Position numbers and translations under genes: made by a program. The notes beneath the pieces were generated by a model that saw only the letters and a list, made by a program, of their open reading frames with translations, did no database searches and had not been told where the DNA came from. Positions 1 through 13,426 of a stretch of DNA of 25,112 bases are shown here, piece by piece. Source of the DNA: a virus (Duplodnaviria > Heunggongvirae > Uroviricota > Caudoviricetes); IMG/VR virus record IMGVR_UViG_2703718778_000012. The stretch is one strand, 5' to 3'. Numbering within the stretch: the stretch's first letter is position 1; each line of letters begins with the position of its first letter.

Positions 1-1053
1 TTACGGGGTAATGCCAACCGCTGCCGCCACTTTGTCGCCACTTGGCAGCGTTGCCAGAGGATTGAAACGGAGCGCCGTTTCTAGATGATCCGGTGCCAGA
101 TGTGCGTAACGCATAGTCATTTTTATATCGTGGTGTCCGAGAATTTTTTGTAAGGCCAGAATGTTTCCACCCGACATCATGAAGTGCGCCGCAAACGTAT
201 GGCGCAGAACGTGTGTGAGTTGACCGCGAGGGAGCACGATAGACGTTTTTTCCATCACGGATAAAAATTGAAAATAGCAGTCTGTGAAGAAATTGAACCC
301 ATCAAGCGCCATGATCTCTTCGTAAAGCTCTTTACTGATAGGGATGCTTCTGTTTTTCTTCCCCTTCGTTCTGACAAAGGTAATTCGGTATTTGGTCACC
401 TGTGAGCGGGTAAGATTTACGGCTTCACGCCAGCGTGCGCCTGTGCTTAAGCATATCTTAACTACCAGTGCCAGAATTGGGTCCTGACGTTTGCAATCAG
501 CCAGCAATTCAACAATCTGCTCATGGGTAAGCCATGCCATCTCTTTTTCTGCGATGGTGAATTTTCGCATGTTCTCCAGTGGGTTCGGATACGACCATTC
601 GCCCAGACGGGATAGTTCGCTAAAAACACTACTTAGATAGCTTTGCTCCAGGTTAATGGTGACCGGGCTTGCTCCTTTCTTCCATTTCTCGCTGAAGTAG
701 ATCTCGCCTGTCAGGCGTTTATCTCGATAGTGGGCAAACATTTTAGAGGTGAGATCGGTTGCAAGAGGATTGCCCAGAGCGTCAACCATCAACAGCAATT
801 TGTCATAGACATGCTGCCCAGCTGTCAGAGATTTACCATGTAGTTTGAACCATAGCTCAACCACGTCTTTCAGTGTTCGACGATCCACTGATTCACCCAG
901 CCAGGGCTTTGCTTCGGTTTCTTCCATCGTGTGGCGCTCAAAAGCCAGTGCTTCGCCTTTGGTAGCGAATTGTTTACGCACACGACGCCCACTTCGTCCG
1001 GCGGGGTAACATTCGCAAAGCCATTTCCCTGTGGTTAGTTTTCGTACTGCCAT
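1..1053 (-). CDS. int: Phage tyrosine integrase (P2/186 family)
   Basis: 350-aa ORF; N-terminus MAVRKLTTGKW...RRVRKQF is typical of P2/P4-type integrases; C-terminal catalytic region HVLRHTFAAHF...HHDIKMTMRYAHL carries the R/H-x-x-R/Y tyrosine-recombinase motifs. Stop codon is at 1-3. Confidence 0.9.
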   Translation of the reverse strand: MAVRKLTTGKWLCECYPAGRSGRRVRKQFATKGEALAFERHTMEETEAKPWLGESVDRRTLKDVVELWFKLHGKSLTAGQHVYDKLLLMVDALGNPLATDLTSKMFAHYRDKRLTGEIYFSEKWKKGASPVTINLEQSYLSSVFSELSRLGEWSYPNPLENMRKFTIAEKEMAWLTHEQIVELLADCKRQDPILALVVKICLSTGARWREAVNLTRSQVTKYRITFVRTKGKKNRSIPISKELYEEIMALDGFNFFTDCYFQFLSVMEKTSIVLPRGQLTHVLRHTFAAHFMMSGGNILALQKILGHHDIKMTMRYAHLAPDHLETALRFNPLATLPSGDKVAAAVGITP

Positions 1054-1077
1054 AAAAAGCCCTCATATCAGAGGGCT
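1052..1077 (-). terminator. Hairpin plus T-run on the minus strand immediately upstream of the int start; candidate intrinsic terminator/attenuator
   Basis: Perfect 7-bp stem AGCCCTC(1058-1064) / GAGGGCT(1071-1077) with a 6-nt loop; on the minus strand it is followed by TTTTAT and then the int ATG. The int Shine-Dalgarno candidate GAGGG lies in the stem. Confidence 0.4.
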
Positions 1078-1135: not shown

Positions 1136-2812
1136 CTAAGCAACATGTAGTTCATCGTTGGCGGAAGTGGCTGCTTTGCGCTCCTGCTCAATAGCTAGAG
1201 ACTCTCTATATTCTTTCGCCTCTGCAAACATTGTCCAGTGGGCGTTGATGTTCATGTCTTCAATAACTGATTTGATTTCTTTTAAATTTACGTTAAAAAA
1301 CTCTTTTCGTGAGTTAATTTTATTGACCTGCTTTTCGTTGAAAACTTTATGCAGATGGTTTTCTAATGATGGTGCATCATCACTATAAATCATCGCATGA
1401 ACATCGAACGAAAAAGGAACACTAGCATCTCCGAGTTCACGAACACGATCAAGTGGTTCAAGGCGGCGTGTCATTCCAATTTTATATACATCTTCGCCAA
1501 ATGAACCAATATTACTAATGATATAGACGTGGCCTGATCTGGTTTGTTGAGCCATAGAAATAGCTCGTTGATTTTTAGCTTCAGCTTCTTCATATTTTAA
1601 CTGTAGTTCAGCTATTTTTTGCTCTAAAGCTAAGCGTTGTTCTTCATTTGCAAGCATAAGTTCTTTCGTTGCTTTATTTATAGCTTGCTGAATAGCTTTT
1701 TCTTCTTTTTCAGCTTCTTTTATCGCTTTTTCATATTCTCTACGAGCTCTTTCCTCTTCACGAAGCTGTTCTTTAATCCTTCTTTGCTCTTCTTTTTCTT
1801 CGAGCATAATTTCATTAACTGCTACACCCCATTTTAGCTCGTTGAGTCTTGCCTGAAGATAGATGTCACTTATTTTTGCGGACCTAAAGGCAGAGCCATT
1901 GTAATTTACTAGTTGAAATGCATCTTTTATTTCTTGGGAAAGTTTTCCAAAATTGTTGTGTTTGACTTTTGATAAAATACTGTCAACTCTTCCATTGAAG
2001 GCATCCAAAACAAAGTTTATGGCAGTATTACGCCTGTTTTGCTCAACATAATCACACGAAGCAGCTTTATTAGTTTTTATTAATGATTTGGTTAACTCTC
2101 TGGCTTTTTGTAATTCCTTGCCTGCATCTGTAAATTCATAATTTTCTGCCAGCTCATCAAGTACACTACGGTTAGGGATGATCCATTCATCACCATAACC
2201 TTCAATTTTATTTTTCATTGATTTTGCAACTGCTTCATATTTTTCTGCAAACTCTTTAGCTTCATATGCTGAACCAGCAATCTCCTTTGCTCTTTCTTCT
2301 GCATCAGAAATAATTTTTACTGCATTGTCATTAGCATTTGAGATTAGCACATTTGCTTTATTATTAGCATTATCAAGACGTTCTTTGGCTTTCAGGCGTG
2401 CATCGCGAGCGTCTTTGGTGATTGCTATAGCTTCGCTATTAGCGTTGCTTATTGTCATCTGAGCTTGATAATTTGCTTCGTTTACTGTTTTAGCCGCCTT
2501 AATTTGGGCTTCATCTATTTTTTGCTTGGCTATTGAGTCCGCATTTTTTATCTTATTCTCTGCATCCATTACTGCGCTGTGCAATTCTTCGTATTGCCAC
2601 AATGGTGCTGCTCGCCCTTCAAGCTCTGATAATTCTCGTACGGTCTGTGCTAGTTTTTCTTGATTTTCAATCAGTTGGTTGGAAAGGGCTATGTTGTTAG
2701 CTGTCAGGTTATCTATAGCCGCTTTGTGTTTTTTACTTTGTTTAAATAATATTACAGCTAGAACAGGGGCGAGAAATGCTAATAAGAGTATAACGATGGC
2801 AAATGAATTCAT
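1136..2812 (-). CDS. Membrane-anchored coiled-coil protein with C-terminal GIY-YIG-like (T5orf172/DUF4041-type) nuclease domain
   Basis: 558-aa ORF. N-terminal hydrophobic helix (FAIVILLLAFLAPVLAVILF), about 350 aa of K/E/A-rich heptad-like sequence, then C-terminal GHVYIISNIGSFGEDVYKIGMTRR...E...FFNV, which fits a GIY-x(10-12)-YIG core with following conserved R/E/N. Strongly AT-rich compared with flanking int and cI. AAGGA Shine-Dalgarno 7 nt before the ATG; only 20 nt downstream of the cI stop. Confidence 0.65.
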   Translation of the reverse strand: MNSFAIVILLLAFLAPVLAVILFKQSKKHKAAIDNLTANNIALSNQLIENQEKLAQTVRELSELEGRAAPLWQYEELHSAVMDAENKIKNADSIAKQKIDEAQIKAAKTVNEANYQAQMTISNANSEAIAITKDARDARLKAKERLDNANNKANVLISNANDNAVKIISDAEERAKEIAGSAYEAKEFAEKYEAVAKSMKNKIEGYGDEWIIPNRSVLDELAENYEFTDAGKELQKARELTKSLIKTNKAASCDYVEQNRRNTAINFVLDAFNGRVDSILSKVKHNNFGKLSQEIKDAFQLVNYNGSAFRSAKISDIYLQARLNELKWGVAVNEIMLEEKEEQRRIKEQLREEERARREYEKAIKEAEKEEKAIQQAINKATKELMLANEEQRLALEQKIAELQLKYEEAEAKNQRAISMAQQTRSGHVYIISNIGSFGEDVYKIGMTRRLEPLDRVRELGDASVPFSFDVHAMIYSDDAPSLENHLHKVFNEKQVNKINSRKEFFNVNLKEIKSVIEDMNINAHWTMFAEAKEYRESLAIEQERKAATSANDELHVA

Positions 2813-2832
2813 TTTAAAATCCTTTTACTATA

Positions 2833-3429
2833 TTAATTCGAGACTATTGTACTTCTTATACAAGCAACCACTTCAATATCAGAAAATGCACATTCAAAGC
2901 TATTCTCTGCTGTTGTAATTTTAATCATTCCTTTAGGAAGCCTTGTGATTTTTCGAATGGAATAGGTTCCGTCGATATTGATTAACCAGTTTCCATCAAG
3001 TACTTCAGAAAATTTTTGATCACAAATGTATGTGACGAGTCCATCCTGAACAACAATTGGTGATGAAAGGTTTGCAGGAAGAAATGATGAATCGAAGACA
3101 TATGAACCGTCTTCAATCATTTTGCCTGCGGCAAGGCGAAACTTAACAAGCTCTTCTGTAGCTGCTGTCAGCGAGCTTTGCTTAAGGCCTTGTCCGGTAG
3201 TTAACCATTTGAGGGAGGTTCCTGTTTCAAGAGCACATTGGATTATCCAGTCAGCAGGAAATGTATCCCGCAAATACCTGTTCGCTAGTGTGCTTTTTGA
3301 TACTTCCAAGTGATCAGCTAAAGCCTGTCGTGTCGTAAAGCCATAGGCTTCGACTAATCGCTCAATCGCAGCCTTACCACCTTTATTGGGATTTATTTTG
3401 ATCTCACTTGGGTACTTTGATGTTGACAT
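2833..3429 (-). CDS. cI: CI-type immunity repressor (phage 186 CI-like)
   Basis: 198 aa (186 CI is about 192 aa). N-terminal segment AYGF..RQALADHLEVSKSTLANRYLR......CALETGTSLKWLTTGQG resembles a 186 CI-type DNA-binding domain. Position between int and a divergent apl/cII operon matches P2/186 synteny. Confidence 0.75.
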   Translation of the reverse strand: MSTSKYPSEIKINPNKGGKAAIERLVEAYGFTTRQALADHLEVSKSTLANRYLRDTFPADWIIQCALETGTSLKWLTTGQGLKQSSLTAATEELVKFRLAAGKMIEDGSYVFDSSFLPANLSSPIVVQDGLVTYICDQKFSEVLDGNWLINIDGTYSIRKITRLPKGMIKITTAENSFECAFSDIEVVACIRSTIVSN

Positions 3430-3458
3430 ATCTCTTTTGCGATCCTAGTATCAGTTTT

Positions 3459-3474: not shown

Positions 3475-3524
3475 TTGTCACGATTACTACAGGCTCACCA
3501 CAAGCCAATAGGAGATGTTGCATC

Positions 3525-3746
3525 ATGACCCCTAACATTTCAATAACTCTGAATACGCCACACGTCACAATCGAGCGTTATAGCGAACTTACTGGTCTTT
3601 CAATCGACACAATCAACGATATGTTGGCGGATGGTCGCATTCCTCGGCATCGTCTTCGTAAAGACAAGAAAAGAGAAAAGGTAATGATCAACCTTGCTGC
3701 TCTTACCGTTGATGCACTTACTGATTGCAATGTTGTATTCAACTAG
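3525..3746 (+). CDS. apl: Apl/Cox-like excisionase and transcriptional regulator
   Basis: 73-aa basic protein ([36 protein letters not shown]) consistent with a small HTH protein. GGAG lies 10 nt upstream of the ATG. First gene of the rightward early operon, directly before cII, as in 186. The ORF track extends it upstream to 3408, which I discount. Confidence 0.6.
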
Positions 3747-5352: not shown

Positions 5353-5579
5353 TGGCTGATGCAATGGATCTCGTACAGCAGCGCGTTGAAGAAGAACGCC
5401 AGCGCCATATCCGTGCAGCCCGTGCCAAATCACCGGGCGTGTCACGCGTACTTTGCATTGAATGTGAAGCGCCAATTCCGCCAGCACGACGCCGCGCCAT
5501 TCCGGGAGTGCAGCTTTGCATTACCTGTCAGGAAATCGCAGAACTGAAAGGCAAACATTACAACGGAGGTGCTGTATGA
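5352..5579 (+). CDS. TraR/DksA-family C4 zinc-finger protein
   Basis: 75 aa with CIECEAPIP-x(13)-CITCQE (Cys-x2-Cys ... Cys-x2-Cys) near the C-terminus, the arrangement of TraR-like proteins common in P2-like prophages. This is not the Ogr/B type of finger. Confidence 0.7.
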   Translation: MADAMDLVQQRVEEERQRHIRAARAKSPGVSRVLCIECEAPIPPARRRAIPGVQLCITCQEIAELKGKHYNGGAV

Positions 5580-6433
5580 GCACTATCCTGAAATGGGCGG
5601 GAAATAAAACCGCCATTATGCCAGAACTGAAAAAATACCTTCCTGCTGGCCCGCGACTGGTTGAACCTTTCGCGGGTTCCTGTGCTGTGATGATGGAAAC
5701 GGATTATCCCAGCTATCTGGTTGCGGATATTAATCCTGATTTAATCAACCTCTATAAAAAGGTTGCCGCTGATTGTGAATCGTTTATATCTCGCGCCAGA
5801 GTTTTATTTGAGATCGCAAACAGGGAGGTGGCTTATTACAACATAAGGCAGGAGTTTAACTGCTCAACAGAAATTACTGATTTCATGAAAGCGGTATATT
5901 TCCTGTATCTCAATCGTCACGGTTACCGTGGTTTATGTCGCTATAACAAGAGCGGGCATTTCAACATTCCCTACGGTAATTATAAAAATCCGTATTTCCC
6001 TGAAAAAGAAATTCGCGTATTTGCAGAAAAAGCCCAGCGGGCAACGTTTATCTGCGCCAGCTTTGATGAAACGCTGGCGATGTTGAAGGCGGGGGATGTG
6101 GTGTATTGCGATCCGCCGTATGACGGTACGTTTTCCGGCTATCACACTGACGGTTTCACTGAAGATGACCAGTATCACCTTGCGTCCGTTCTTGAACATC
6201 GGTCATCAGAAGGACATCCGGTCATTGTTTCTAACAGTGATACATCCCTGATCCGTTCGCTGTATCGCAATTTTACTCACCACTATATCAAGGTAAAACG
6301 CAGCATCGGTGTGGCAGCTGGCGAGGGTAAATCAGCAACAGAAATCATTGCTGTTTCCGGGCCGCGCTGCTGGGTGGGATTTGATTATTCGCGTGGCGTG
6401 GATAGTTCTGCCGTGTACGGAGTACGTGCATGA
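5576..6433 (+). CDS. dam: DNA adenine methyltransferase (Dam family, orphan)
   Basis: 285 aa. N-terminal ILKWAGNK...EPFAGSCAV (AdoMet-binding motif I) and CDPPYDG (motif IV, DPPY) are diagnostic of N6-adenine methyltransferases. Start overlaps the upstream stop (ATGA). No restriction partner is adjacent. Confidence 0.85.
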
Positions 6434-8844
6434 GTCATGCCGATATGAACAACTGCAGCGGCGTTAACGAGGTCGCCGCAGCATTCTCATGGAACAGTCC
6501 GAAAAAGGCTGTTAACCCTTATCTGGACCCGGCGGAAGTTGCGCCGGTTTCTGCGCTTTCAAACCTGATCACTCTGTACGCTGCCGATAACAAGCAGGAA
6601 CAACTGCGCCGCGAGGCACTGAGTGATCAGGTCTGGGAGCGTTATTTCTTTAATGAATCCCGTGATCCTGTCCAACGCGAAATGGAGCAGGATAAGCTCA
6701 TTAGCCGGGCAAAGCTGGCGCATGAGCAGCAGCGTTTTAATCCGGACATGGTCATACTGGCGGACGTTAACGCCCAGCCTTCCCATATCAGCAAGCCGCT
6801 GATGCAACGTATTGAATACTTCAGCAGCCTGGGCAGGCCAAAGGCTTATTCCCGCTATTTGCGTGAGACGATTAAGCCATGTCTGGAACGGCTGGAGCAT
6901 GTACGCGACAGTCAGCTATCCACTTCTTTTCGCTTTATGGCAAGCCATGAAGGGCTGGACGGCCTGCTGATTCTGCCTGAAATGAGTCAGGATCAGGTGA
7001 AACGCCTGTCCACCCTTGTTGCTGCGTATATGAGCATGTGCCTTGATGCAGCTTGTGGCGATTTGTATGCCACCGATGACGTTAAGCCAGAAGAAATCCG
7101 CAAGACATGGGAAAGGGGGGCGGCGGAAACCCTGCGTCTGGATGTCATTCCTCCTGCGTTTGAGCAACTCCGTCGGAAAAGAAACCGCCGTAAACCCGTG
7201 CCCTATGAACTCATTCCGGGTTCGCTGGCGCGTATGTTGTGCGCCGACTGGTGGTATCGGAAATTATGGAAGATGCGTTGCGAATGGCGGGAAGAGCAGT
7301 TGCGCGCTGTCTGCCTGGTCAGCAAAAAAGCATCTCCTTATGTCAGCTATGAAGCCGTGATGCATAAACGTGAGCAGCGCCGTAAGTCGCTGGAGTTTTT
7401 CCGTTCTCATGAACTGGTGAACGAAGACGGCGACACGCTGGACATGGAGGATGTGGTAAACGCCAGCAGCAGCAACCCGGCGCATCGCCGCAATGAGATG
7501 ATGGCCTGTGTTAAAGGTCTGGAGCTTATCGCGGAAATGCGCGGTGACTGCGCCGTTTTCTACACCATCACCTGTCCGTCACGTTTCCATTCCACGCTAA
7601 ATAACGGCAGGCCCAACCCAACCTGGACAAATGCGACGGTAAGACAAAGCAGTGATTATCTGGTCGGCATGTTTGCTGCATTTCGTAAGGCGATGCACAA
7701 AGCCGGATTGCGGTGGTATGGCGTGCGGGTGGCTGAGCCGCATCATGACGGTACAGTTCACTGGCACCTGTTGTGTTTTATGCGCAAAAAAGACCGCCGC
7801 ACCATCACTGCATTACTGCGTAAGTTTGCCATCCGTGAAGACCGCGAGGAGCTGGGCAATAACACTGGGCCGCGCTTTAAGTCTGAGTTGATTAACCCGC
7901 GCAAAGGTACGCCAACAAGCTACATCGCGAAATACATTAGTAAGAACATTGACGGGCGTGGTCTGGCTGGCGAGATCAGCAAGGAAACGGGGAAATCCCT
8001 GCGTGATAATGCTGAATACGTTAATGCCTGGGCGTCTCTGCATCGTGTTCAGCAATTCCGCTTCTTTGGCATTCCGGGGCGTCAGGCTTACCGTGAACTG
8101 CGATTGCTGGCTGGTCAGGCGGCAAGGCAACAGGGGGACAAAAAAGCAGGTGCGCCGGTACTGGATAACCCGCGCCTTGATGCCATTCTGGCTGCTGCTG
8201 ATGCTGGTTGTTTTGCCACCTACATCATGAAGCAGGGTGGCGTACTGGTTCCCCGCAAATATCACCTCATCAGAACTGCTTATGAAATCAACGAAGAGCC
8301 AACCGCCTATGGCGATCACGGCATTCGTATTTATGGCATCTGGTCACCTATTGCAGAGGGCAAGATCTGCACTCATGCCGTGAAGTGGAAAATGGTTCGT
8401 AAGGCCGTTGACGTTCAGGAGGCGGCAGCCGACCAGGGCGCTTGCGCCCCTTGGACTCGTGGCAATAACTGTCCCCTTGCTGAAAATTTGAACCAGCAGG
8501 AGAAAGATAAATCAGCTGATGGGGACACCAGAACGGACATTACCTGCATGGATGACAAGGAGTTGCACGATTATCTGCACAGTATGAGCAAAAAAGATCG
8601 CCGGGAACTGGCAGCAAGGTTACGCCTGGTGAAACCGAAACGGCGTAAAGACTACAAACAGCGAATTACAGACCATCAGCGACAGCAGCTTGTCTATGAA
8701 CTGAAGTCCAGAGGATTTGATGGCAGCGAGAAAGAGGTCGAGTTGCTCCTTCGCGGTGGCAGTATTCCGTCAGGAGCAGGCCTGCGTATCTTCTATCGGA
8801 ACCAGCGTCTGCAGGAGGATGATAAATGGCGGAACATGTATTAA
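6430..8844 (+). CDS. A: Replication initiation protein A (rolling-circle HUH endonuclease, P2 gpA family)
   Basis: 804 aa. HUH motif in VHWHLLCF and candidate catalytic tyrosine in YIAKYISK. Size and position after the early operon match P2/186 gene A. Start overlaps the dam stop. Confidence 0.9.
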
Positions 8845-8912
8845 TTACGCTGATTAACAATTCGTGCTCTTAATAATACCAGGCATATCAGGCTGATGAA
8901 CGTAAAAAAACG

Positions 8913-8954
8913 TTTTACATCAGTAAGATTATTATATACTGTAAATATAAACAG
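8913..8954 (+). promoter_or_regulatory. SOS promoter: TTTACA-N16-TATACT with an overlapping LexA box CTGTAAATATAAACAG
   Basis: CTGT-N8-ACAG at 8939-8954 matches the E. coli LexA consensus CTGTATATATATACAG at 14 of 16 positions and overlaps a sigma70-like -10 element; it lies about 45 nt upstream of the GGAGGA-ATG of the following ORF. Confidence 0.5.
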
Positions 8955-8997
8955 TGGTTATGTATACAGTATTGCTTGTGGTGTCATAGGAGGAAAA

Positions 8998-9186
8998 ATG
9001 CAGGACTATTTTTTGGAGTCTTTGAAGCTCCAGCGCATTGATTTTTTTCTTAAGCTTGTAGCGGCTAGTGAGTGTAGTGATGAAGAGAAGGGGCTGGCTT
9101 TGCAGTGGGTTTCTGAACTAACAGATGAACTCATGGCAAAAATCAGAACCCACGAATACAACCGCTCAATGGATGTCATCAGTTGA
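8998..9186 (+). CDS. Small SOS-induced protein (possible Tum-like antirepressor N-terminal part)
   Basis: 62 aa from the ATG at 8998, preceded by a strong GGAGGA Shine-Dalgarno. The ORF track's upstream extension to 8896 would read through the LexA box, so I discount it. Confidence 0.5.
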   Translation: MQDYFLESLKLQRIDFFLKLVAASECSDEEKGLALQWVSELTDELMAKIRTHEYNRSMDVIS

Positions 9187-9196
9187 GGTGACTTTT

Positions 9197-9430
9197 ATGC
9201 GCATTGAAATAATGATCGATAAAGAGCAGAAGATTAGCCAGTCTATCCTGGATGCCCTTGAATCCGAGCTTTACCGCAATCTGCGCCCCCTGTATCCAAA
9301 AACGGTAATTCGTATCCGCAAAGGTAGCTCTAACGGTGTGGAACTGACCGGACTGCAACTGGACGAAGAAAGAAAACAAGTGATGAAAATTATGCAGAAG
9401 GTGTGGGAAGACGACAGCTGGCTGCATTAG
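9197..9430 (+). CDS. DinI-family protein
   Basis: 77 aa. MRIEIMIDK...LDALESELYRNLRPLYP...VIRIRKGSSNGVELTG...KIMQKVWEDDSW parallels E. coli DinI (MRIEVTIAK...) in length and pattern. Confidence 0.7.
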   Translation: MRIEIMIDKEQKISQSILDALESELYRNLRPLYPKTVIRIRKGSSNGVELTGLQLDEERKQVMKIMQKVWEDDSWLH

Positions 9431-9558
9431 AGAACGTTGCGGATGATAAAACTAGCTTTTACCATCTGCAAGGCTGAACAACGATTGTAGCGAGGTGTTA
9501 GGTGGTTCAAAAGTAAAGCGGTTATTTTGCCCGTAAAAGTGAACCACCTGTATCTTGA

Positions 9559-10299
9559 TCAGTTTTCTTTGAATTTTTCACTTAATCGTTTCGTCAATAC
9601 TTCGACAGATTCTTTGCGACCGGAGAACAAGTCATTGACGACGTACTCCATAATCTCAAAAGCATCCTCAATGTCTTTGACTTTTACTTCATCGTAGGTA
9701 TGGCTTCCGGCATTTCCTAAAAATTTAATTGCCATAAGAGGTCTTGAAAACGATCCGTATAATTCAGGTAGCATCCCTAAACGGTGGTGTAGAGTTATGC
9801 GTTTGCCATTATCATTACGTTCAGCTACATCCATAGCGGTTAGCATTCTTTCAACTGAAATTCGAATTAGGTTTGCTGCTGCGCCAGGCTGTATTAGGAA
9901 AATGGAAAATGAGGCTTCAAGCGGTTCGGTAATTTCTTCTGGGCATTTTTCAGGTATTTCGAAAGGATGCAGTGATGGGTAAAAGGTGAAAGGTCTGTGC
10001 CATTGATAGTACTCAATATCATTTCTTTCTTCATCCCAACCTTGTTCCCATCCACTCTTACCAGTACAGGCCACAACTTCACCACATTGCATTCTTGAAC
10101 AGCGGGCCATGCAACTGAAAATAGATGAATCCATTTCTGGTTCAAACCAATCTTCACTGCGGAATTTTCGGGTATCATGTGTGTCATACGAGACGAAACT
10201 TTCTTTAATGATCTGTAGGGTTTTCTGATTGCAGTTAGGGCAGGGCCACTCAACCTGCATATCGTGGAAAAACGCACCAGAGAGCTTGTGCACAGTCAT
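9559..10299 (-). CDS. Hypothetical protein with N-terminal Cys-rich (zinc-ribbon-like) region and C-terminal alpha-helical domain (possibly DUF4145-like)
   Basis: 246-aa ORF, AT-rich relative to backbone. CPNCNQ ... CMARCSRMQCGEVVAC suggests a metal-binding module. The C-terminal half (AAANLIRISVERML...FLGNAGSH) is helical; the DUF4145 assignment is from memory only. Transcribed divergently from the HNH operon. Confidence 0.65.
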   Translation of the reverse strand: MTVHKLSGAFFHDMQVEWPCPNCNQKTLQIIKESFVSYDTHDTRKFRSEDWFEPEMDSSIFSCMARCSRMQCGEVVACTGKSGWEQGWDEERNDIEYYQWHRPFTFYPSLHPFEIPEKCPEEITEPLEASFSIFLIQPGAAANLIRISVERMLTAMDVAERNDNGKRITLHHRLGMLPELYGSFSRPLMAIKFLGNAGSHTYDEVKVKDIEDAFEIMEYVVNDLFSGRKESVEVLTKRLSEKFKEN

Positions 10300-10445
10300 T
10301 CTTTGTGTTCCTCATTTTTATGATTGGTAGGGATTGTATCTTCATACACGATTACAGTTGCATTAAAGATAAGCCATAGCAAGCTACTGGAAAAGAGACG
10401 AAACAGTTGGGCATATCAGATGTTTTTTCTTAAGGTAAGTTGTTG

Positions 10446-10546
10446 TGCATGCCTATACTGCATGAGATTGCATGATCGTTTGAGGATCGTTATTGCTAAG
10501 GCCCACCAGAACTGGCGGGCTTTTGCGTAGAGCATGCAGGTGCATG
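10446..10546. repeat. Cluster of five GCATG motifs, including the direct repeat TGCATGA-N3-TGCATGA
   Basis: TGCATG at 10446, 10459 and 10469; GCATGC at 10532; TGCATG at 10541. Lies between the 246-aa gene start and the cos-like sequence. Confidence 0.35.
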
Positions 10547-10569
10547 AAAACCACTACATAAAGCGGGCA

Positions 10570-10600
10570 GGCGTGGCGGGGATACGAGCGCGCGCTCACC
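10570..10600. other. cos: Candidate cos site (cohesive-end region)
   Basis: GGCGTGGCGGGGATACGAGCGCGCGCTCACC closely resembles the P2/186 cohesive-end region as I remember it (P2 GGCGAGGCGGGGAAAGCAC followed by TGCGCGCTGAC). Includes a perfect palindrome GAGCGCGCGCTC. This is a GC-rich island within AT-rich flanks. Confidence 0.5.
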
Positions 10601-10676
10601 ACAATTAGCAAGCTTGCTTATAGGGTTGTTCAGTAATAAATTAACATCCTAATTTCTATACTTTTAAGGTTAGTTC

Positions 10677-11372
10677 ATGGCTTGCAGTAGGGGAAAAGCT
10701 TCTCCAAACGCTAATACAGTTAGACGGCTTTTTGCCAGCTCAGGTGGCTTTTGCCAAAATCCACAATGCTTGCAACCTTTGTTTGTTGATGCTGGCGACA
10801 AAAATATAACAATTGGAGAACTTGCTCACATTTTTAGTGCCATTGATAATGGACCTAGAACCAATGCTGATCTAACTGATGAGCAGAGAGGTCATTTTGA
10901 CAACATTATTCTTCTATGTGCTAATTGCCATACGACAATTGATAAGGCAGAGGAACATTTTACTGATGAAATTATCCGTTCTTGGAAAAACGGCCATATT
11001 GATAAAATAAATGCAACCTTTGGTGTTAAAACATATGACAATCGAGAATCTGTTAGACAGGAGTTAGAAAAATACTTCAGAGAAAACAATACCATTTTTG
11101 TAACATATGGACCAACCCAAGAGAACAGCGTTGACCCTGAAAATCCAAATGCAGAAGTATGGTTAAGAAAAGTACAATCTCATATCTTACCCAACAATAG
11201 AAAAGTACAGCGACTGGTTGAACAAAACTATCACCTCATGAGTGAAGATGAGAAGAATGTTTTTTCAAAGCTTTGTGTTCATATAGATGACTTTGAATCA
11301 AAACATTTGGGCTTAACCGATGCTAATGGTAGTAGGTTTCCAGAAGCTGCATCTGAACTATTTATAGGATGA
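10677..11372 (+). CDS. HNH-family endonuclease
   Basis: 231 aa. GGFCQNPQC ... ELAHIFSAIDNGP ... DNIILLCANCHTTIDK contains the His / Asn / Cys-x2-Cys-His elements of an HNH beta-beta-alpha-metal fold. AT-rich. First gene of a three-gene operon with overlapping stop/start codons. Confidence 0.75.
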   Translation: MACSRGKASPNANTVRRLFASSGGFCQNPQCLQPLFVDAGDKNITIGELAHIFSAIDNGPRTNADLTDEQRGHFDNIILLCANCHTTIDKAEEHFTDEIIRSWKNGHIDKINATFGVKTYDNRESVRQELEKYFRENNTIFVTYGPTQENSVDPENPNAEVWLRKVQSHILPNNRKVQRLVEQNYHLMSEDEKNVFSKLCVHIDDFESKHLGLTDANGSRFPEAASELFIG

Positions 11373-12028
11373 ATCCAATGAGCATAAATGCGAGTGAAGG
11401 CTATATTTCATGGATGGCAGGAAAATTGCAAGAAAATAAATGTGTCGAAAATATAGAGGTGATAGGTGATGGTACTTTAGTGATTAATACTACACAGGGT
11501 GACACCTATTTGATCGGGGCAATCAATACTGGCCGGATAACATGTCCTGAGATAAATGAATACCTAGACAATAAAAAAATTGATTTTCTATCAGTCAAGG
11601 GAGGTGTTGAATTTATCTCTGGTGATGCAATGAGATTACTAGAACAAAAGAAAATAGGAGTGGGTTCATTTGGGCATATTGCATCTTCTTTAAGAGCTAA
11701 TAATCCGCTTGAGCATCTTGATAAAGAGCATTTGTTTATAAATAGAGTGTTCAATCAACATTCACATGTAAGCTCTGTAGAGCGAGAAACCAACAAAAAA
11801 TATAGACTTAAAAGACGTGGCTTGGCGGACTTAGTTATTATCGCTGCGAATGATTATGATATGACAGCGGGTTCTGTAAGAGATGCGATAGGGTTGCATG
11901 GCAATTGTGATGTTGTTTTTTCCTCCAATCCTAATGGACGATTGACGACTCAGGCAAAAGAGGCTGCTCAAAGTATCGGGGTGGAGCTTTACAAGTTGGG
12001 TGATTTATTACGAAGAATTTCACGGTAG
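11369..12028 (+). CDS. Hypothetical protein (middle gene of HNH/NTase operon)
   Basis: 219-aa ORF whose start overlaps the HNH stop (ATGA). No motif I can assign with confidence; contains RVFNQH (R-x4-H), which is weakly reminiscent of a HEPN motif. Confidence 0.65.
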   Translation: MNPMSINASEGYISWMAGKLQENKCVENIEVIGDGTLVINTTQGDTYLIGAINTGRITCPEINEYLDNKKIDFLSVKGGVEFISGDAMRLLEQKKIGVGSFGHIASSLRANNPLEHLDKEHLFINRVFNQHSHVSSVERETNKKYRLKRRGLADLVIIAANDYDMTAGSVRDAIGLHGNCDVVFSSNPNGRLTTQAKEAAQSIGVELYKLGDLLRRISR

Positions 12029-12345
12029 TGAATTTTAAACATACGATTGAATCGATCTGTGATGTTATTATCCATCATAGTTTATATATGGTGGATGTAT
12101 ATGTATTTGGGTCAGCATTAAAGAGTTTTTGCGATGCAAATGATATTGATATGCTTGTGATAGGTGATTGTGTCGATGGTTTATTATTGAAGCGAAAGCT
12201 GCGGGAGCTTGATTTATTTGTTCCTGTTCATATTATTACAATGACGCATTCAGAAGAGTATGAACTGGGATTTATTAAGTCAGTTGGCACTTCTCTGCTT
12301 GTTGTTGATAAAAGCGTTAAGATCAATTTTGTATGTGGTATATAA
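12028..12345 (+). CDS. Minimal nucleotidyltransferase (Pol-beta superfamily, MNT-like)
   Basis: 105 aa. VYVFGSALKSFCDANDIDMLVIGD fits the GS-x(9-13)-DxD signature of minimal nucleotidyltransferases. Probable GTG start overlapping the upstream stop (TAGTG); an internal ATG is an alternative start. Confidence 0.6.
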   Translation: MNFKHTIESICDVIIHHSLYMVDVYVFGSALKSFCDANDIDMLVIGDCVDGLLLKRKLRELDLFVPVHIITMTHSEEYELGFIKSVGTSLLVVDKSVKINFVCGI

Positions 12346-12356
12346 CGGGTGGCAAT

Positions 12357-12394
12357 AAGCCTCTTCTTTGGATGGGTTTCTAAAGAAGAGGCTT
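12357..12394. terminator. Strong hairpin between convergent operons (candidate bidirectional terminator)
   Basis: Perfect 13-bp inverted repeat AAGCCTCTTCTTT (12357-12369) / AAAGAAGAGGCTT (12382-12394) with a 12-nt loop, placed between the end of the NTase gene and the stop of Q. Confidence 0.5.
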
Positions 12395-12397
12395 TAA

Positions 12398-13426
12398 TTA
12401 CAAGGAGTAATCTTGGAATTTTATTACGTCATCATGTAGCCAATTGTTCACCTCTCTAATTCGTTGTTGAAGAGGCTTTAATTCATTACGTACAAAAACC
12501 GTGGATGCCTTCTCCACATCCCCAAACCCGCCAACATTATTCGGCATGATACCCATCATTTGCGGAGGCACGCGGTGTGCCGCCATCATGTCATCCCGGC
12601 TCACGTTCTTGATGTTCAGAAATTCATCCTTTGCCGCGACTTCTGACAACGGGATAATCTGAAGACCATCCTTTTTGCCGTTAGGTGAGTACATAAACAG
12701 GTTGCGGAAGTTGCCTGGACCTTTGGCGCTTTTCATTGCGTTGCGGAGGTTGTTCACATCCTCCTGGTTCTGCGCAGCATCGGTCATGTACATGATGAAG
12801 CCAGCATGACTGCCGTTAATGTAATACTTTCGGCGGAACAGCGTGGCGGACTCGTTGAGCAGGGCTGACGGAATGGCAGAAAGATAACCGGGCAGGCCGT
12901 AGATCTCCTGGTTGATGTCCGGTTCCATCAGATGAAAGATGCTGCCTTTCGTGAACTGATATGGCTGCGTGGTCATACCGTATTGCACAAACCAGTAGGT
13001 ATCCAGGTCTAACCCGCGTCGGGTGTATTTTGCCAGGGCAGGTTCAAGGGCGATAACTTCACCGAAGCGGTTCGTGCGTTTCTCCAGGTAGGCGTTACCA
13101 AATACCAGATAGTCCTGCACAAAACGCGAAAAAGCCTGCTGGCTGAGCAGCGGGTGAGGGATGTAGGTGCTGGTCAGAATGTTGCACTTTACTGCAATCG
13201 GGGAACTATGATGCACGGCAGCGCGGAAGGTGCGCGCCAGTCCGTCAAAGCTGACGGGCGGCTCATACCAGCGGTCCATCTGTACGCATTCCACATAATC
13301 CAGCAGTTCTCGGCGGTCCAGAACAGGAACGGGATCGCCGAAGCTGAATGCTTCGGCTGTAGTTTGACTTTTAAGCTGGATCTGTTTCGTCGCCGCAGTG
13401 CGGTTCTTCTTACTCTTTCCCATCAA
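12398..13426 (-). CDS. Q: Portal protein (P2 gpQ family)
   Basis: 342 aa. Extended similarity to my recollection of P2 gpQ (GDPVPVLDRREL..., YLVFGNAYLE..., LNESATLFRRKYY.NG.HAG.IMY.TDA, IPLSEVAAKD.F.NIK, FVRNEL.PLQ.RIRE.N.WL). Start overlaps the P stop. Confidence 0.9.
   Translation of the reverse strand: MMGKSKKNRTAATKQIQLKSQTTAEAFSFGDPVPVLDRRELLDYVECVQMDRWYEPPVSFDGLARTFRAAVHHSSPIAVKCNILTSTYIPHPLLSQQAFSRFVQDYLVFGNAYLEKRTNRFGEVIALEPALAKYTRRGLDLDTYWFVQYGMTTQPYQFTKGSIFHLMEPDINQEIYGLPGYLSAIPSALLNESATLFRRKYYINGSHAGFIMYMTDAAQNQEDVNNLRNAMKSAKGPGNFRNLFMYSPNGKKDGLQIIPLSEVAAKDEFLNIKNVSRDDMMAAHRVPPQMMGIMPNNVGGFGDVEKASTVFVRNELKPLQQRIREVNNWLHDDVIKFQDYSL

Follow-up and report, generated by a model that had tools for sequence, protein, structure and literature searches.

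The window, that is the whole stretch of 25,112 nucleotides of viral DNA that was analysed, contains a 558-aa ORF between a gene for a 186-type CI immunity repressor and a gene for a P2/186-type tyrosine integrase (Table 1). The ORF opens with an ATG and closes with a stop codon at 1136..1138. Its ATG lies exactly 20 nt beyond the cI stop codon and its end lies 82 nt from int, whilst at 37.0% GC it is poorer in G and C than the window (49.6%) or int (48.8%). The preliminary description of this locus had drawn attention to an AT-rich 558-aa gene between cI and int, 20 nt past the cI stop, and the ORF, its spacing and its composition all bear this out. The same description had stated that int directly follows the repressor gene in phage 186, and the two genes are indeed adjacent there, both belonging to the pL lysogenic operon. 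The int side is the end of the prophage, which adjoins rcdA/ybjJ in E. coli (from the context in strain JNEC-KY179).

Table 1. Coordinates of features at the cI-int locus (positions in the window)
Feature	Position	Strand	Basis
P2/186-type tyrosine integrase, 350 aa	1..1053	-	PF24624 3.2e-32 and PF00589 7.2e-22
Terminator-like hairpin AGCCCTC-TGATAT-GAGGGCT followed by TTTTT	1058..1077	-	Terminator scan; ends directly at the int ATG
SNIPE / PD-lambda-1 family protein, 558 aa	1136..2812	-	Identical to WP_062896810.1 (exact-sequence look-up)
GIY-YIG-type (T5orf172/MUG113) nuclease domain, residues 426-528	1229..1537	-	Invariant residues
Charged helical linker, residues 336-425	1538..1807	-	AlphaFold2 (AF2) helices 316-387 and 390-425
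Globular DUF4041/'SNIPE' region, residues ~205-335	1808..2200	-	PF13250 core 267-322 = 1847..2014
Helical stalk, residues 25-204	2201..2740	-	AF2 helices 3-131 and 136-205
Predicted N-terminal TM helix, residues ~4-24	2741..2803	-	Kyte-Doolittle 19-residue maximum 3.16 at residues 4-22
cI-to-ORF spacer, 20 nt	2813..2832	-	Shine-Dalgarno AAAGGA at 2820..2825, 7 nt before the ATG; read from sequence
186-type CI immunity repressor, 198 aa	2833..3429	-	PF07022 8.2e-32 and PF16452 3.5e-27
Candidate early lytic promoter pR, TTGACA-17-TAGTAT	3423..3451	+	10/12 consensus match; faces pL
Candidate lysogenic promoter pL, TTGAAA-17 nt-CAACAT	3515..3543	-	Positional homology to annotated 186 pL (pairwise alignment)

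The layout matches the lysogenic operon of phage 186, whose order is pL-cI-int-orf69. The candidate pL overlaps the start of an apl/cox-like gene and has a weak -10 element (the annotated 186 pL reads TTGCGA / CATGAT); a simple scan for the sigma-70 consensus did not call it. The candidate pR and the pR annotated in 186 are placed alike with respect to the start of cI. Between cI and the ORF the terminator scan found no terminator-like site, and in or near the spacer the sigma-70 scan found no promoter-like site; same-strand promoter-like matches occur only deep within the ORF, close to its 3′ end. Given a 20-nt gap that contains a Shine-Dalgarno sequence, a junction free of terminators and an operon layout like that of 186, it is plausible that the ORF is co-transcribed with cI from pL in lysogens. 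The hairpin downstream of the ORF carries the likely Shine-Dalgarno sequence of int (GAGGG) in its 3′ arm, and its counterpart beside a Klebsiella copy of the gene has an identical stem and a different loop. Homology with prophages carrying other cargo begins at ~1133 or 1115, and therefore we assign this hairpin to the int module.

The protein can be divided into five parts. At the N-terminus lies a single predicted TM helix, as first supposed, which is also helical in the AlphaFold2 model. Only three residues precede it and the positively charged KQSKKHK follows it, and thus an N-out/C-in topology is predicted. Next comes a stalk rich in Ala, Lys, Glu and Asn, with an 11-residue periodicity over residues ~84-195; its self-similarity peaks at offsets of 11, 25, 36, 47, 58 and 69, and the best score, 64, exceeds the highest value reached in 200 shuffles, 44. 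The region beyond the stalk is globular, with mixed helices and short strands modelled at 217-315, and precedes the charged helical linker. The coiled coil of about 350 aa proposed in the preliminary description is thus helical in large part but not continuous, as the AlphaFold2 model resolves it into a stalk of ~180 aa, a globular DUF4041 region of ~130 aa and a helical linker of ~90 aa.

Pfam profiles place known domains on two of these parts. PF13250 (DUF4041, now named 'SNIPE') matches residues 267-322 (3.1e-12; 46.6 bits, gathering score 27). At the C-terminus, T5orf172 (PF10544) matches residues 427-520 (64.9 bits, cut-off 20), and MUG113 (PF13455) matches residues 443-520 (72.7 bits, cut-off 22.3). 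The combination of DUF4041 and T5orf172, which the preliminary description had named, is therefore present, with PF13250 and PF10544 both above their Pfam thresholds. The C-terminal GIY-YIG-like domain had been recognised from the motifs GHVYIIS and YKIGMTRR, which start at residues 427 and 443, within the PF10544 and PF13455 matches.

The nuclease domain shows what distinguishes the GIY-YIG superfamily, an alpha/beta fold in which Tyr, Arg, Glu and Asn are conserved. Its invariant residues include Y430 (codon 1523..1525), K444, G446, R449/R450, R456, E484, H488, N497 and N500. The catalytic Glu E484 (codon 1361..1363) and 17 other listed residues of the domain are invariant across 68 sequences. 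A Foldseek search of the full-length model against the PDB returned only proteins with long helices (the SK4 channel, ciliary microtubule inner proteins and Vipp1), all at E > 0.1. As this was uninformative, residues 418-558 were modelled alone. Sequence searches against PDB chains, with the protein and with the domain profile, returned only two nanobodies at E ~1.

The ORF matches the PD-Lambda-1 models of PADLOC over most of its length: PDLC03976 (3.6e-120) aligns positions 45-481 of its 491 with residues 124-550, and PDLC03977 (1.4e-116) covers residues 106-551. It also matches phrog_1847 (1.7e-132), and the precomputed Pfam annotation of a Klebsiella homologue labels PF13250 'SNIPE'. RefSeq names copies of 99.9% nucleotide identity mostly 'DUF4041 domain-containing protein' and in some cases 'SNIPE associated domain-containing protein'. 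PD-lambda-1 was discovered as an anti-lambda gene (Vassallo et al. 2022, Nat Microbiol, PMC9519451). Under the name SNIPE, it has since been characterised as a GIY-YIG nuclease of the inner membrane, which cuts phage DNA while the latter is being injected (Saxton et al. 2026, Nature, PMC13190303; 10.1101/2025.11.03.685801).

Much is known of how SNIPE works. PhoA-LacZalpha fusions showed an N-out/C-in topology, membrane anchoring prevents self-cleavage, and the protein becomes toxic once its TM helix is removed (PMC13190303). The E414A substitution abolishes defence (PMC13190303), and E484 of the ORF is the equivalent of this catalytic residue. Both DNA and the tape measure protein are ligands of the DUF4041 domain, and via its N-terminal region and DUF4041 SNIPE associates with two kinds of partner, ManYZ and the tape measure proteins of siphoviruses; the N-terminal half has been proposed to act as a specificity 'adapter' (PMC13190303). 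Defence is direct and not abortive, and SNIPE had no effect on any myovirus or podovirus of the BASEL collection (PMC13190303). The only family homologue tested experimentally is PD-lambda-1 of ECOR26 (PMC13190303). Whether any protein with DUF4041 and T5orf172 had been characterised was left open in the preliminary description, and these two studies (PMC9519451; PMC13190303) answer it in the affirmative. Moreover, that description had suggested a membrane-tethered nuclease acting on incoming DNA. Since a family member works in this way experimentally and the ORF matches the PD-Lambda-1 models, the evidence supports this interpretation as correct, for a defence system that was already known.

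The ORF was compared with SNIPE by way of a proxy, a 500-aa protein of E. coli MP1, rather than PD-lambda-1 (RCP76574.1) itself. The proxy was chosen because it has the length of PD-lambda-1 and carries each of the nine residues to which the SNIPE paper refers by name (E223, N250, L253, W257, E264, K305, I308, T319 and E414). BLASTP aligned the ORF with it at 50% identity over 293 aa (E = 5e-77). Identity to the proxy is 35% overall. The nuclease domain (70%) and the linker (50%) are more similar than this, and that speaks for a shared effector chemistry. Identity falls to 27% over the DUF4041 core (265-335), and it approaches background throughout the TM helix and stalk and over the first half of the globular region. 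In the stalk no BLASTP alignment was obtained, with only 7/49 and 3/44 identities.

The stalk is also ~72 aa longer than that of SNIPE, with 270 aa preceding the conserved AFN motif as compared with mostly 195-244 in the SNIPE clade. Three residues that tune recognition of the tape measure protein differ (W257 to K327, E223 to S292 and N250 to Q320). The regions responsible for association with ManYZ and tape measure proteins are thus the most diverged, and so this association may not carry over to the ORF. On these sequence comparisons we place the ORF in a distinct, diverged subfamily of the SNIPE family.

SNIPE of ECOR26 (RCP76574.1) and the ORF nevertheless share the order of an N-terminal TM helix, helical stalk, DUF4041, charged helical linker and C-terminal GIY-YIG/T5orf172 domain, and both are single-gene systems borne on prophages. 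The former has 500 aa and the latter 558 aa, the extra length lying in the 11-residue-periodic stalk. Their genomic settings are different: the SNIPE proxy belongs to a lambdoid prophage, where the nin region and ren/P flank it and an HD-domain gene adjoins it, whereas the ORF is flanked by cI and int and its prophage is 186/P2-like. Zorya, Kiwa and the superinfection exclusion protein gp15 of HK97 likewise belong to the inner membrane and act at or just after DNA injection (10.1101/2025.11.03.685801; PMC13190303). HK97 gp15, like SNIPE, depends on the tape measure protein but blocks entry without a nuclease. All three are unrelated to the ORF in sequence and architecture, and Zorya and Kiwa are multi-gene systems.

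Near-identical copies of the gene occur in 164 of 5426 complete E. coli genomes (~3%). The cI allele, at ≥90% nucleotide identity, occurs in 163, and it is from the similarity of these two genome counts that a putative linkage of allele and gene is read. The family is much wider, with 3370 cluster representatives at E ≤ 0.001, and homologues are on record from Citrobacter, Salmonella and Enterobacter. In Klebsiella prophages the cI-gene-int layout recurs with the same 20-nt and 82-nt spacers and the same AAAGGA. Against the Klebsiella copy, pN/pS is 0.098/0.774; this measure is given in place of dN/dS because synonymous sites are saturated (pS 0.77) over the whole gene and in most regions. The ORF is therefore a real gene, under strong purifying selection over its whole length across genera.

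In sister prophages the slot between cI and int holds other, unrelated cargo. Defence genes between cI/int and the primase gene of P2-like phages have been reported (PMC9122126; PMC13586616), and according to a 2026 survey in NAR, 8% of the defence systems of P2 are located between integrase and primase (PMC13586616). The variable cargo slot occupied by the ORF is thus already noted in the literature, whilst these papers make no mention of PD-Lambda-1/SNIPE at the cI-int slot (0 occurrences in PMC13586616). The slot shows the same pattern of fixed position and alternative cargo as the known defence hotspots of P2-like prophages (Rousset et al. 2022, PMC9122126; PMC13586616), but it differs from the major gpA-gpQ (old/tin) and Z/fun hotspots.

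Taken together, these data make it highly probable that the gene encodes an anti-phage protein of the SNIPE (PD-lambda-1) family, carried as cargo of the lysogeny operon in a 186/P2-like prophage. We infer that a lysogen would make the protein together with CI on the pL transcript, probably constitutively. The N-terminal helix is predicted to insert in the inner membrane with ~3 residues in the periplasm and the rest in the cytoplasm, as shown for SNIPE. The stalk and DUF4041 would then put the protein at the sites where phage genomes enter, and DUF4041 would bind DNA as well as the infecting phage's tape measure protein, again as in SNIPE. The C-terminal domain would cut incoming DNA as it crosses the membrane and the cell would survive, a direct defence and not abortive infection, whilst the membrane tether would keep the nuclease away from the chromosome. 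Given the strong divergence of the N-terminal half and of the DUF4041 surface facing the tape measure protein, this protein probably differs from SNIPE in which phages it excludes and in any host entry factor on which it docks.

The same divergence could be taken further. A protein of this family might act on another target, such as heteroimmune P2-like myoviruses or conjugative or transforming DNA, or in another mode, as a triggered toxic nuclease of the abortive kind instead of a direct defence against siphoviruses. The 'adapter' half is unrelated to that of SNIPE at the BLAST level and ~72 aa longer, the DUF4041 core is only 27% identical, and the carrier, a prophage of myovirus type, has other P2-like phages as its competitors. 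However, SNIPE was without effect on the BASEL myoviruses and podoviruses, its defence is direct, and its nuclease and linker are the parts best conserved here. We therefore regard a different target or mode as unlikely.

Phage homing endonucleases include proteins with T5orf172 and GIY-YIG domains, and a far less probable reading is that the gene is a selfish, free-standing homing endonuclease inserted between cI and int, from which the lysogen gains nothing. Its AT-richness relative to the flanks and the coincidence of its stop codon with the downstream boundary to the int module would fit. Against this stand the TM anchor, the 180-aa stalk and DUF4041, a full architecture matching that of an experimentally validated defence protein, and the purifying selection on the full length across genera. 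Among the Pfam matches there is no DNA-binding module of homing endonucleases, only weak coiled-coil matches beyond the domains named above. Moreover, unrelated cargo in the same slot of sister prophages is the pattern of a cargo hotspot and not of a homing site. We reject this reading on the architecture and the variable-cargo slot.

Least credible of all is a structural or cell-biological coiled-coil protein, as implied by the names 'chromosome segregation ATPase' (GenBank, phages vB_EcoM-813R9 and KP12) and 'vacuolar-type H+-ATPase subunit H' (JGI) and by weak DivIVA and SMC matches: the protein has no Walker A motif, its confident domains are DUF4041/SNIPE and the nuclease, and the SMC (TIGR02169, 15.5 bits against a cut-off of 729.4) and DivIVA (DivIVA_Wag31, 22.4 against 260; Pfam DivIVA, 18.3 against 28) matches, like the V-ATPase-subunit label, are rejected as sub-threshold compositional matches of a helical Ala/Lys/Glu-rich sequence.

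For the SNIPE-family protein that we favour, there is a more speculative extension, which we hold to be improbable: that this subfamily, given its unrelated and longer 11-residue-periodic stalk and its diverged DUF4041 surface, docks on other entry machinery and so extends injection-coupled cleavage to phages that SNIPE spares, for example heteroimmune P2-like myoviruses in competition for one host. Were this true, the gene would represent a repressor-linked, immunity-independent superinfection-exclusion nuclease.

In summary, a prediction from raw sequence had correctly captured the mechanism that experiments later established for a defence family, and a putative defence function can be assigned to a gene still labelled 'chromosome segregation ATPase' in GenBank phage records. 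The remaining value is comparative, in that this is a natural variant of SNIPE whose nuclease is conserved and whose proposed specificity parts (TM helix, stalk and DUF4041 surface) are replaced. Therefore, with its occurrence in both E. coli and Klebsiella, it offers a convenient partner for domain-swap work on how SNIPE chooses its phages.

Profile searches place ORF558, the SNIPE-like gene, in a described defence family. The DUF4041 plus T5orf172 combination named in the preliminary description was found: PF13250, PF10544 and the GIY-YIG-type family MUG113 all matched above Pfam gathering scores. Moreover, PADLOC PD-Lambda-1 models match residues 106/124 to 551 at 3.6e-120 and 1.4e-116, and phrog_1847 (function not assigned in PHROGs) matches at 1.7e-132; no NCBIfam profile matched above threshold. 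The exact protein is WP_062896810.1. Copies at 99.9% nucleotide identity are named 'DUF4041 domain-containing protein' in RefSeq, with 'SNIPE associated domain-containing protein' used in some genomes, and newer Pfam names PF13250 'SNIPE'.

PD-lambda-1 was found by functional selection for anti-lambda genes in E. coli ECOR26 (QOXL01000020, RCP76574.1, 1503 nt) and renamed SNIPE by Saxton et al. (bioRxiv 10.1101/2025.11.03.685801; Nature 2026, PMC13190303); among homologues, experimental data are limited to ECOR26 SNIPE (PMC13190303). Defence is direct and non-abortive: the protein lies in the inner membrane, N-out/C-in, its DUF4041 binds DNA, and radiolabelled lambda DNA is cleaved during injection, not after prophage induction (PMC13190303). 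E414A abolishes defence, and removal of the transmembrane (TM) helix is toxic because the chromosome is then cut (PMC13190303). Protection is weak to strong against most BASEL siphoviruses and extends to no myovirus or podovirus (PMC13190303). Single DUF4041 substitutions (e.g. W257R, E223K) retune SNIPE towards particular tape measure proteins, and the N-terminal region, the least conserved part, is a suggested specificity 'adapter' (Saxton et al., PMC13190303).

As a proxy for RCP76574.1 we used the E. coli MP1 protein WP_032286722.1 (500 aa), because it matches SNIPE in length and carries each of the nine residues that the SNIPE paper names. BLASTP gave 50% identity over ORF558 residues 265-555 (E = 5e-77), leaving residues 1-264 unaligned, and overall identity was 35% in a 68-sequence alignment. 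Identities per aligned residues were 4/25 in the TM helix, 7/49 and 3/44 in the stalk (residues 26-125 and 126-200), 7/61 in residues 201-264, 19/70 in the DUF4041 core, 44/88 in the linker and 71/102 in the nuclease. The SNIPE catalytic Glu (E414) aligns with E484, one of 18 nuclease-domain residues invariant in 68/68 sequences (G427, Y430, K444, G446, T448, R449, R450, R456, E459, D470, H472, E484, H488, N497, N500, R502, K503 and E504). The specificity-tuning positions W257, E223 and N250 are K327, S292 and Q320 in ORF558, 270 aa precede the conserved AFN motif compared with mostly 195-244 in the SNIPE clade, and the characterised SNIPE has a stalk ~72 aa shorter. By sequence, ORF558 appears to represent a diverged subfamily of SNIPE. 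The MP1 gene, of the characterised type, is carried by a lambdoid prophage, where it is flanked by the nin region and ren/P, with a 515-aa HD-domain protein directly downstream on the same strand (comparison locus L002:7846-9393).

The architecture first proposed, a membrane-anchored coiled-coil protein with a C-terminal nuclease domain, is essentially right, yet the coiled coil of ~350 aa is helical without being continuous. A full-length AlphaFold2 (AF2) model from the 68-sequence alignment (mean pLDDT 75, pTM 0.33) lays it out as two helical segments either side of a globular domain of ~130 aa. The Ala/Lys/Glu/Asn-rich stalk has 11-residue (hendecad) periodicity, with self-similarity peaks at offsets 11, 25, 36, 47, 58 and 69 (best score 64; 200 shuffles reached no more than 44), which accounts for weak DivIVA and V-ATPase-subunit matches. 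Modelling gives moderate support to a GIY-YIG fold for the C-terminal domain: a separate model of residues 418-558 (pLDDT 70, pTM 0.62) returned top-ranked PDB proteins in Foldseek at E-values of 0.19-0.37, and this reading agrees with the Pfam families matched and with what HHpred assigned in the SNIPE paper (PMC13190303). Against the Klebsiella homologue (84% amino acid, 76% nucleotide identity), pN was 0.098 and pS 0.774 (saturated), pointing to strong purifying selection from end to end. Amino acid identity is lowest in the TM helix (64%) and stalk (74%) and highest in the DUF4041 region and linker (92% each) and the nuclease (89%).

Features of the window, of ORF558 and of the compared prophages (L-numbers are comparison loci; aa, residues of ORF558)
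Feature	Position	Strand	Details
Integrase, P2/186-type	1..1053	-	350 aa; PF24624 + PF00589; downstream of ORF558
Terminator-like hairpin, then TTTTT	1058..1077	-	ends exactly at int start codon
ORF558	1136..2812	-	ATG start, 558 aa
Hendecad stalk	2240..2560	-	aa ~84-195
CI repressor, 186-type	2833..3429	-	198 aa; PF07022 8.2e-32, PF16452 3.5e-27; upstream of ORF558
Candidate pR	3423..3451	+	TTGACA-17-TAGTAT; position equivalent to 186 pR
Candidate pL	3543..3515	-	TTGAAA-17-CAACAT; from alignment with 186 upstream of cI
Dam-type D12 N6-adenine methyltransferase	5516..6433		PF02086 1.7e-74; PADLOC orphan MTase 2.9e-110
gpA	6430..8844
gpA-gpQ hotspot	8845..12397
DinI-like gene	9125..9430		in hotspot
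DUF4145 protein	9559..10299	-	in hotspot; weak PD-T7-4 match, 2e-5
Three overlapping co-directional ORFs	10677..11372, 11369..12028, 12028..12345		in hotspot
Portal gpQ	12398..13426	-
DUF4041 (PF13250)	aa 267-322
T5orf172 (PF10544)	aa 427-520
MUG113 (PF13455)	aa 443-520
AF2 continuous helix	aa 3-131		TM helix running into stalk
AF2 second helix	aa 136-205
AF2 mixed globular region	aa 217-315
AF2 helices	aa 316-387, 390-425
AF2 beta/alpha domain	aa 427-528
cI-int cargo, HS, 1EC213, MB19, CX12			63-aa ORF
cI-int cargo, KO11FL	L008:2550-4001		483-aa KAP P-loop NTPase
cI-int cargo, PK5074	L006:1814-2803		329-aa hypothetical protein, alongside tandem-HTH CI
cI-int cargo, Klebsiella phage 4LV2017	L004:1609-2658		349-aa hypothetical protein
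cI-int cargo, ESSI2_ev040			none
int-att cargo, sister prophages	L009:4799-5551; L010:4746-5974		DUF2971 protein; Panacea-domain protein + partner

In phage 186 cI abuts int, both annotated in the pL lysogenic operon (pL-cI-int-orf69-terminator), and in the relative ESSI2_ev040 int directly follows cI; ORF558 is therefore an insertion between the two, as originally suggested. The AT-rich character and close spacing also hold, with 37.0% GC against 49.6% for the window and 20 nt from the cI stop to the ATG, which has a Shine-Dalgarno AAAGGA 7 nt upstream. Klebsiella prophages share the layout (cI, 20 nt, gene, 82 nt, int). A terminator scan found no terminator-like site between cI and ORF558, and promoter-like matches on this strand lie only deep within ORF558, near its 3′ end. 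Given these and the candidate pL, the most economical reading is that ORF558 would be co-transcribed with cI in lysogens. Homology with prophages carrying other cargo starts at window ~1133 or 1115, which assigns the hairpin before int to the int module. The likely int Shine-Dalgarno, GAGGG, falls within the 3′ arm of this hairpin, and the Klebsiella copy has an identical stem and a different loop; the hairpin could reduce read-through from cI and ORF558 and also mask translation of int.

Prophages that share essentially this int and are integrated beside rcdA hold varied cargo in the cI-int slot; the 349-aa protein had no match in PADLOC or Pfam. The interval from int to the attachment site forms a second variable slot. 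By genome totals, this cI allele (163) and ORF558 (164) are nearly equally common. A cI-int hotspot had been described before, in Vibrio K139-like P2 relatives (Rousset et al., PMC9122126), and in a 2026 survey of P2 defence systems the integrase-primase interval accounted for 8% and the integrase-att interval for 3% (PMC13586616).

Genes also occupy the gpA-gpQ interval, the classical defence hotspot of P2. The HNH-like N-terminus of the first of its three overlapping ORFs matches PADLOC candidate PDC-M68A (2.3e-29); the other two had no matches. Just upstream of gpA, the Dam-type methyltransferase is common to this prophage lineage.

At ≥90% nucleotide identity ORF558 occurs in 164/5426 complete E. 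coli genomes, always chromosomal and single copy, and the whole family comprises 3370 cluster representatives (50%-identity clusters) at E ≤ 0.001. Two deposited Peduoviridae phages, vB_EcoM-813R9 (ON470620.1, L001:6001-7677) and KP12 (OM835953.1), have the cI-ORF558-int order. Their GenBank label, 'chromosome segregation ATPase', and the JGI label for homologues, 'vacuolar-type H+-ATPase subunit H', are compositional mis-annotations. In E. coli DETEC-S560 (NZ_CP116094.1 1542550..1545564) the gene matches in two pieces around an IS4-like ISVsa5 transposase, so it is disrupted in at least one genome. Window 1188..1800 (linker and nuclease) shows ~69% nucleotide identity over ~610 nt to Marinitoga (Thermotogota) virus genes (E = 1e-63); genes of Synechococcus and Clostridium phages match it less strongly. 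For the nuclease module this is unusually deep DNA-level conservation, reaching across phyla.

ORF558 is a real feature of an already known kind of system, matched itself by standard defence-annotation models (PADLOC), and the function first proposed for it, a membrane-tethered nuclease acting on incoming DNA, agrees with the experimentally established mechanism of the SNIPE family.
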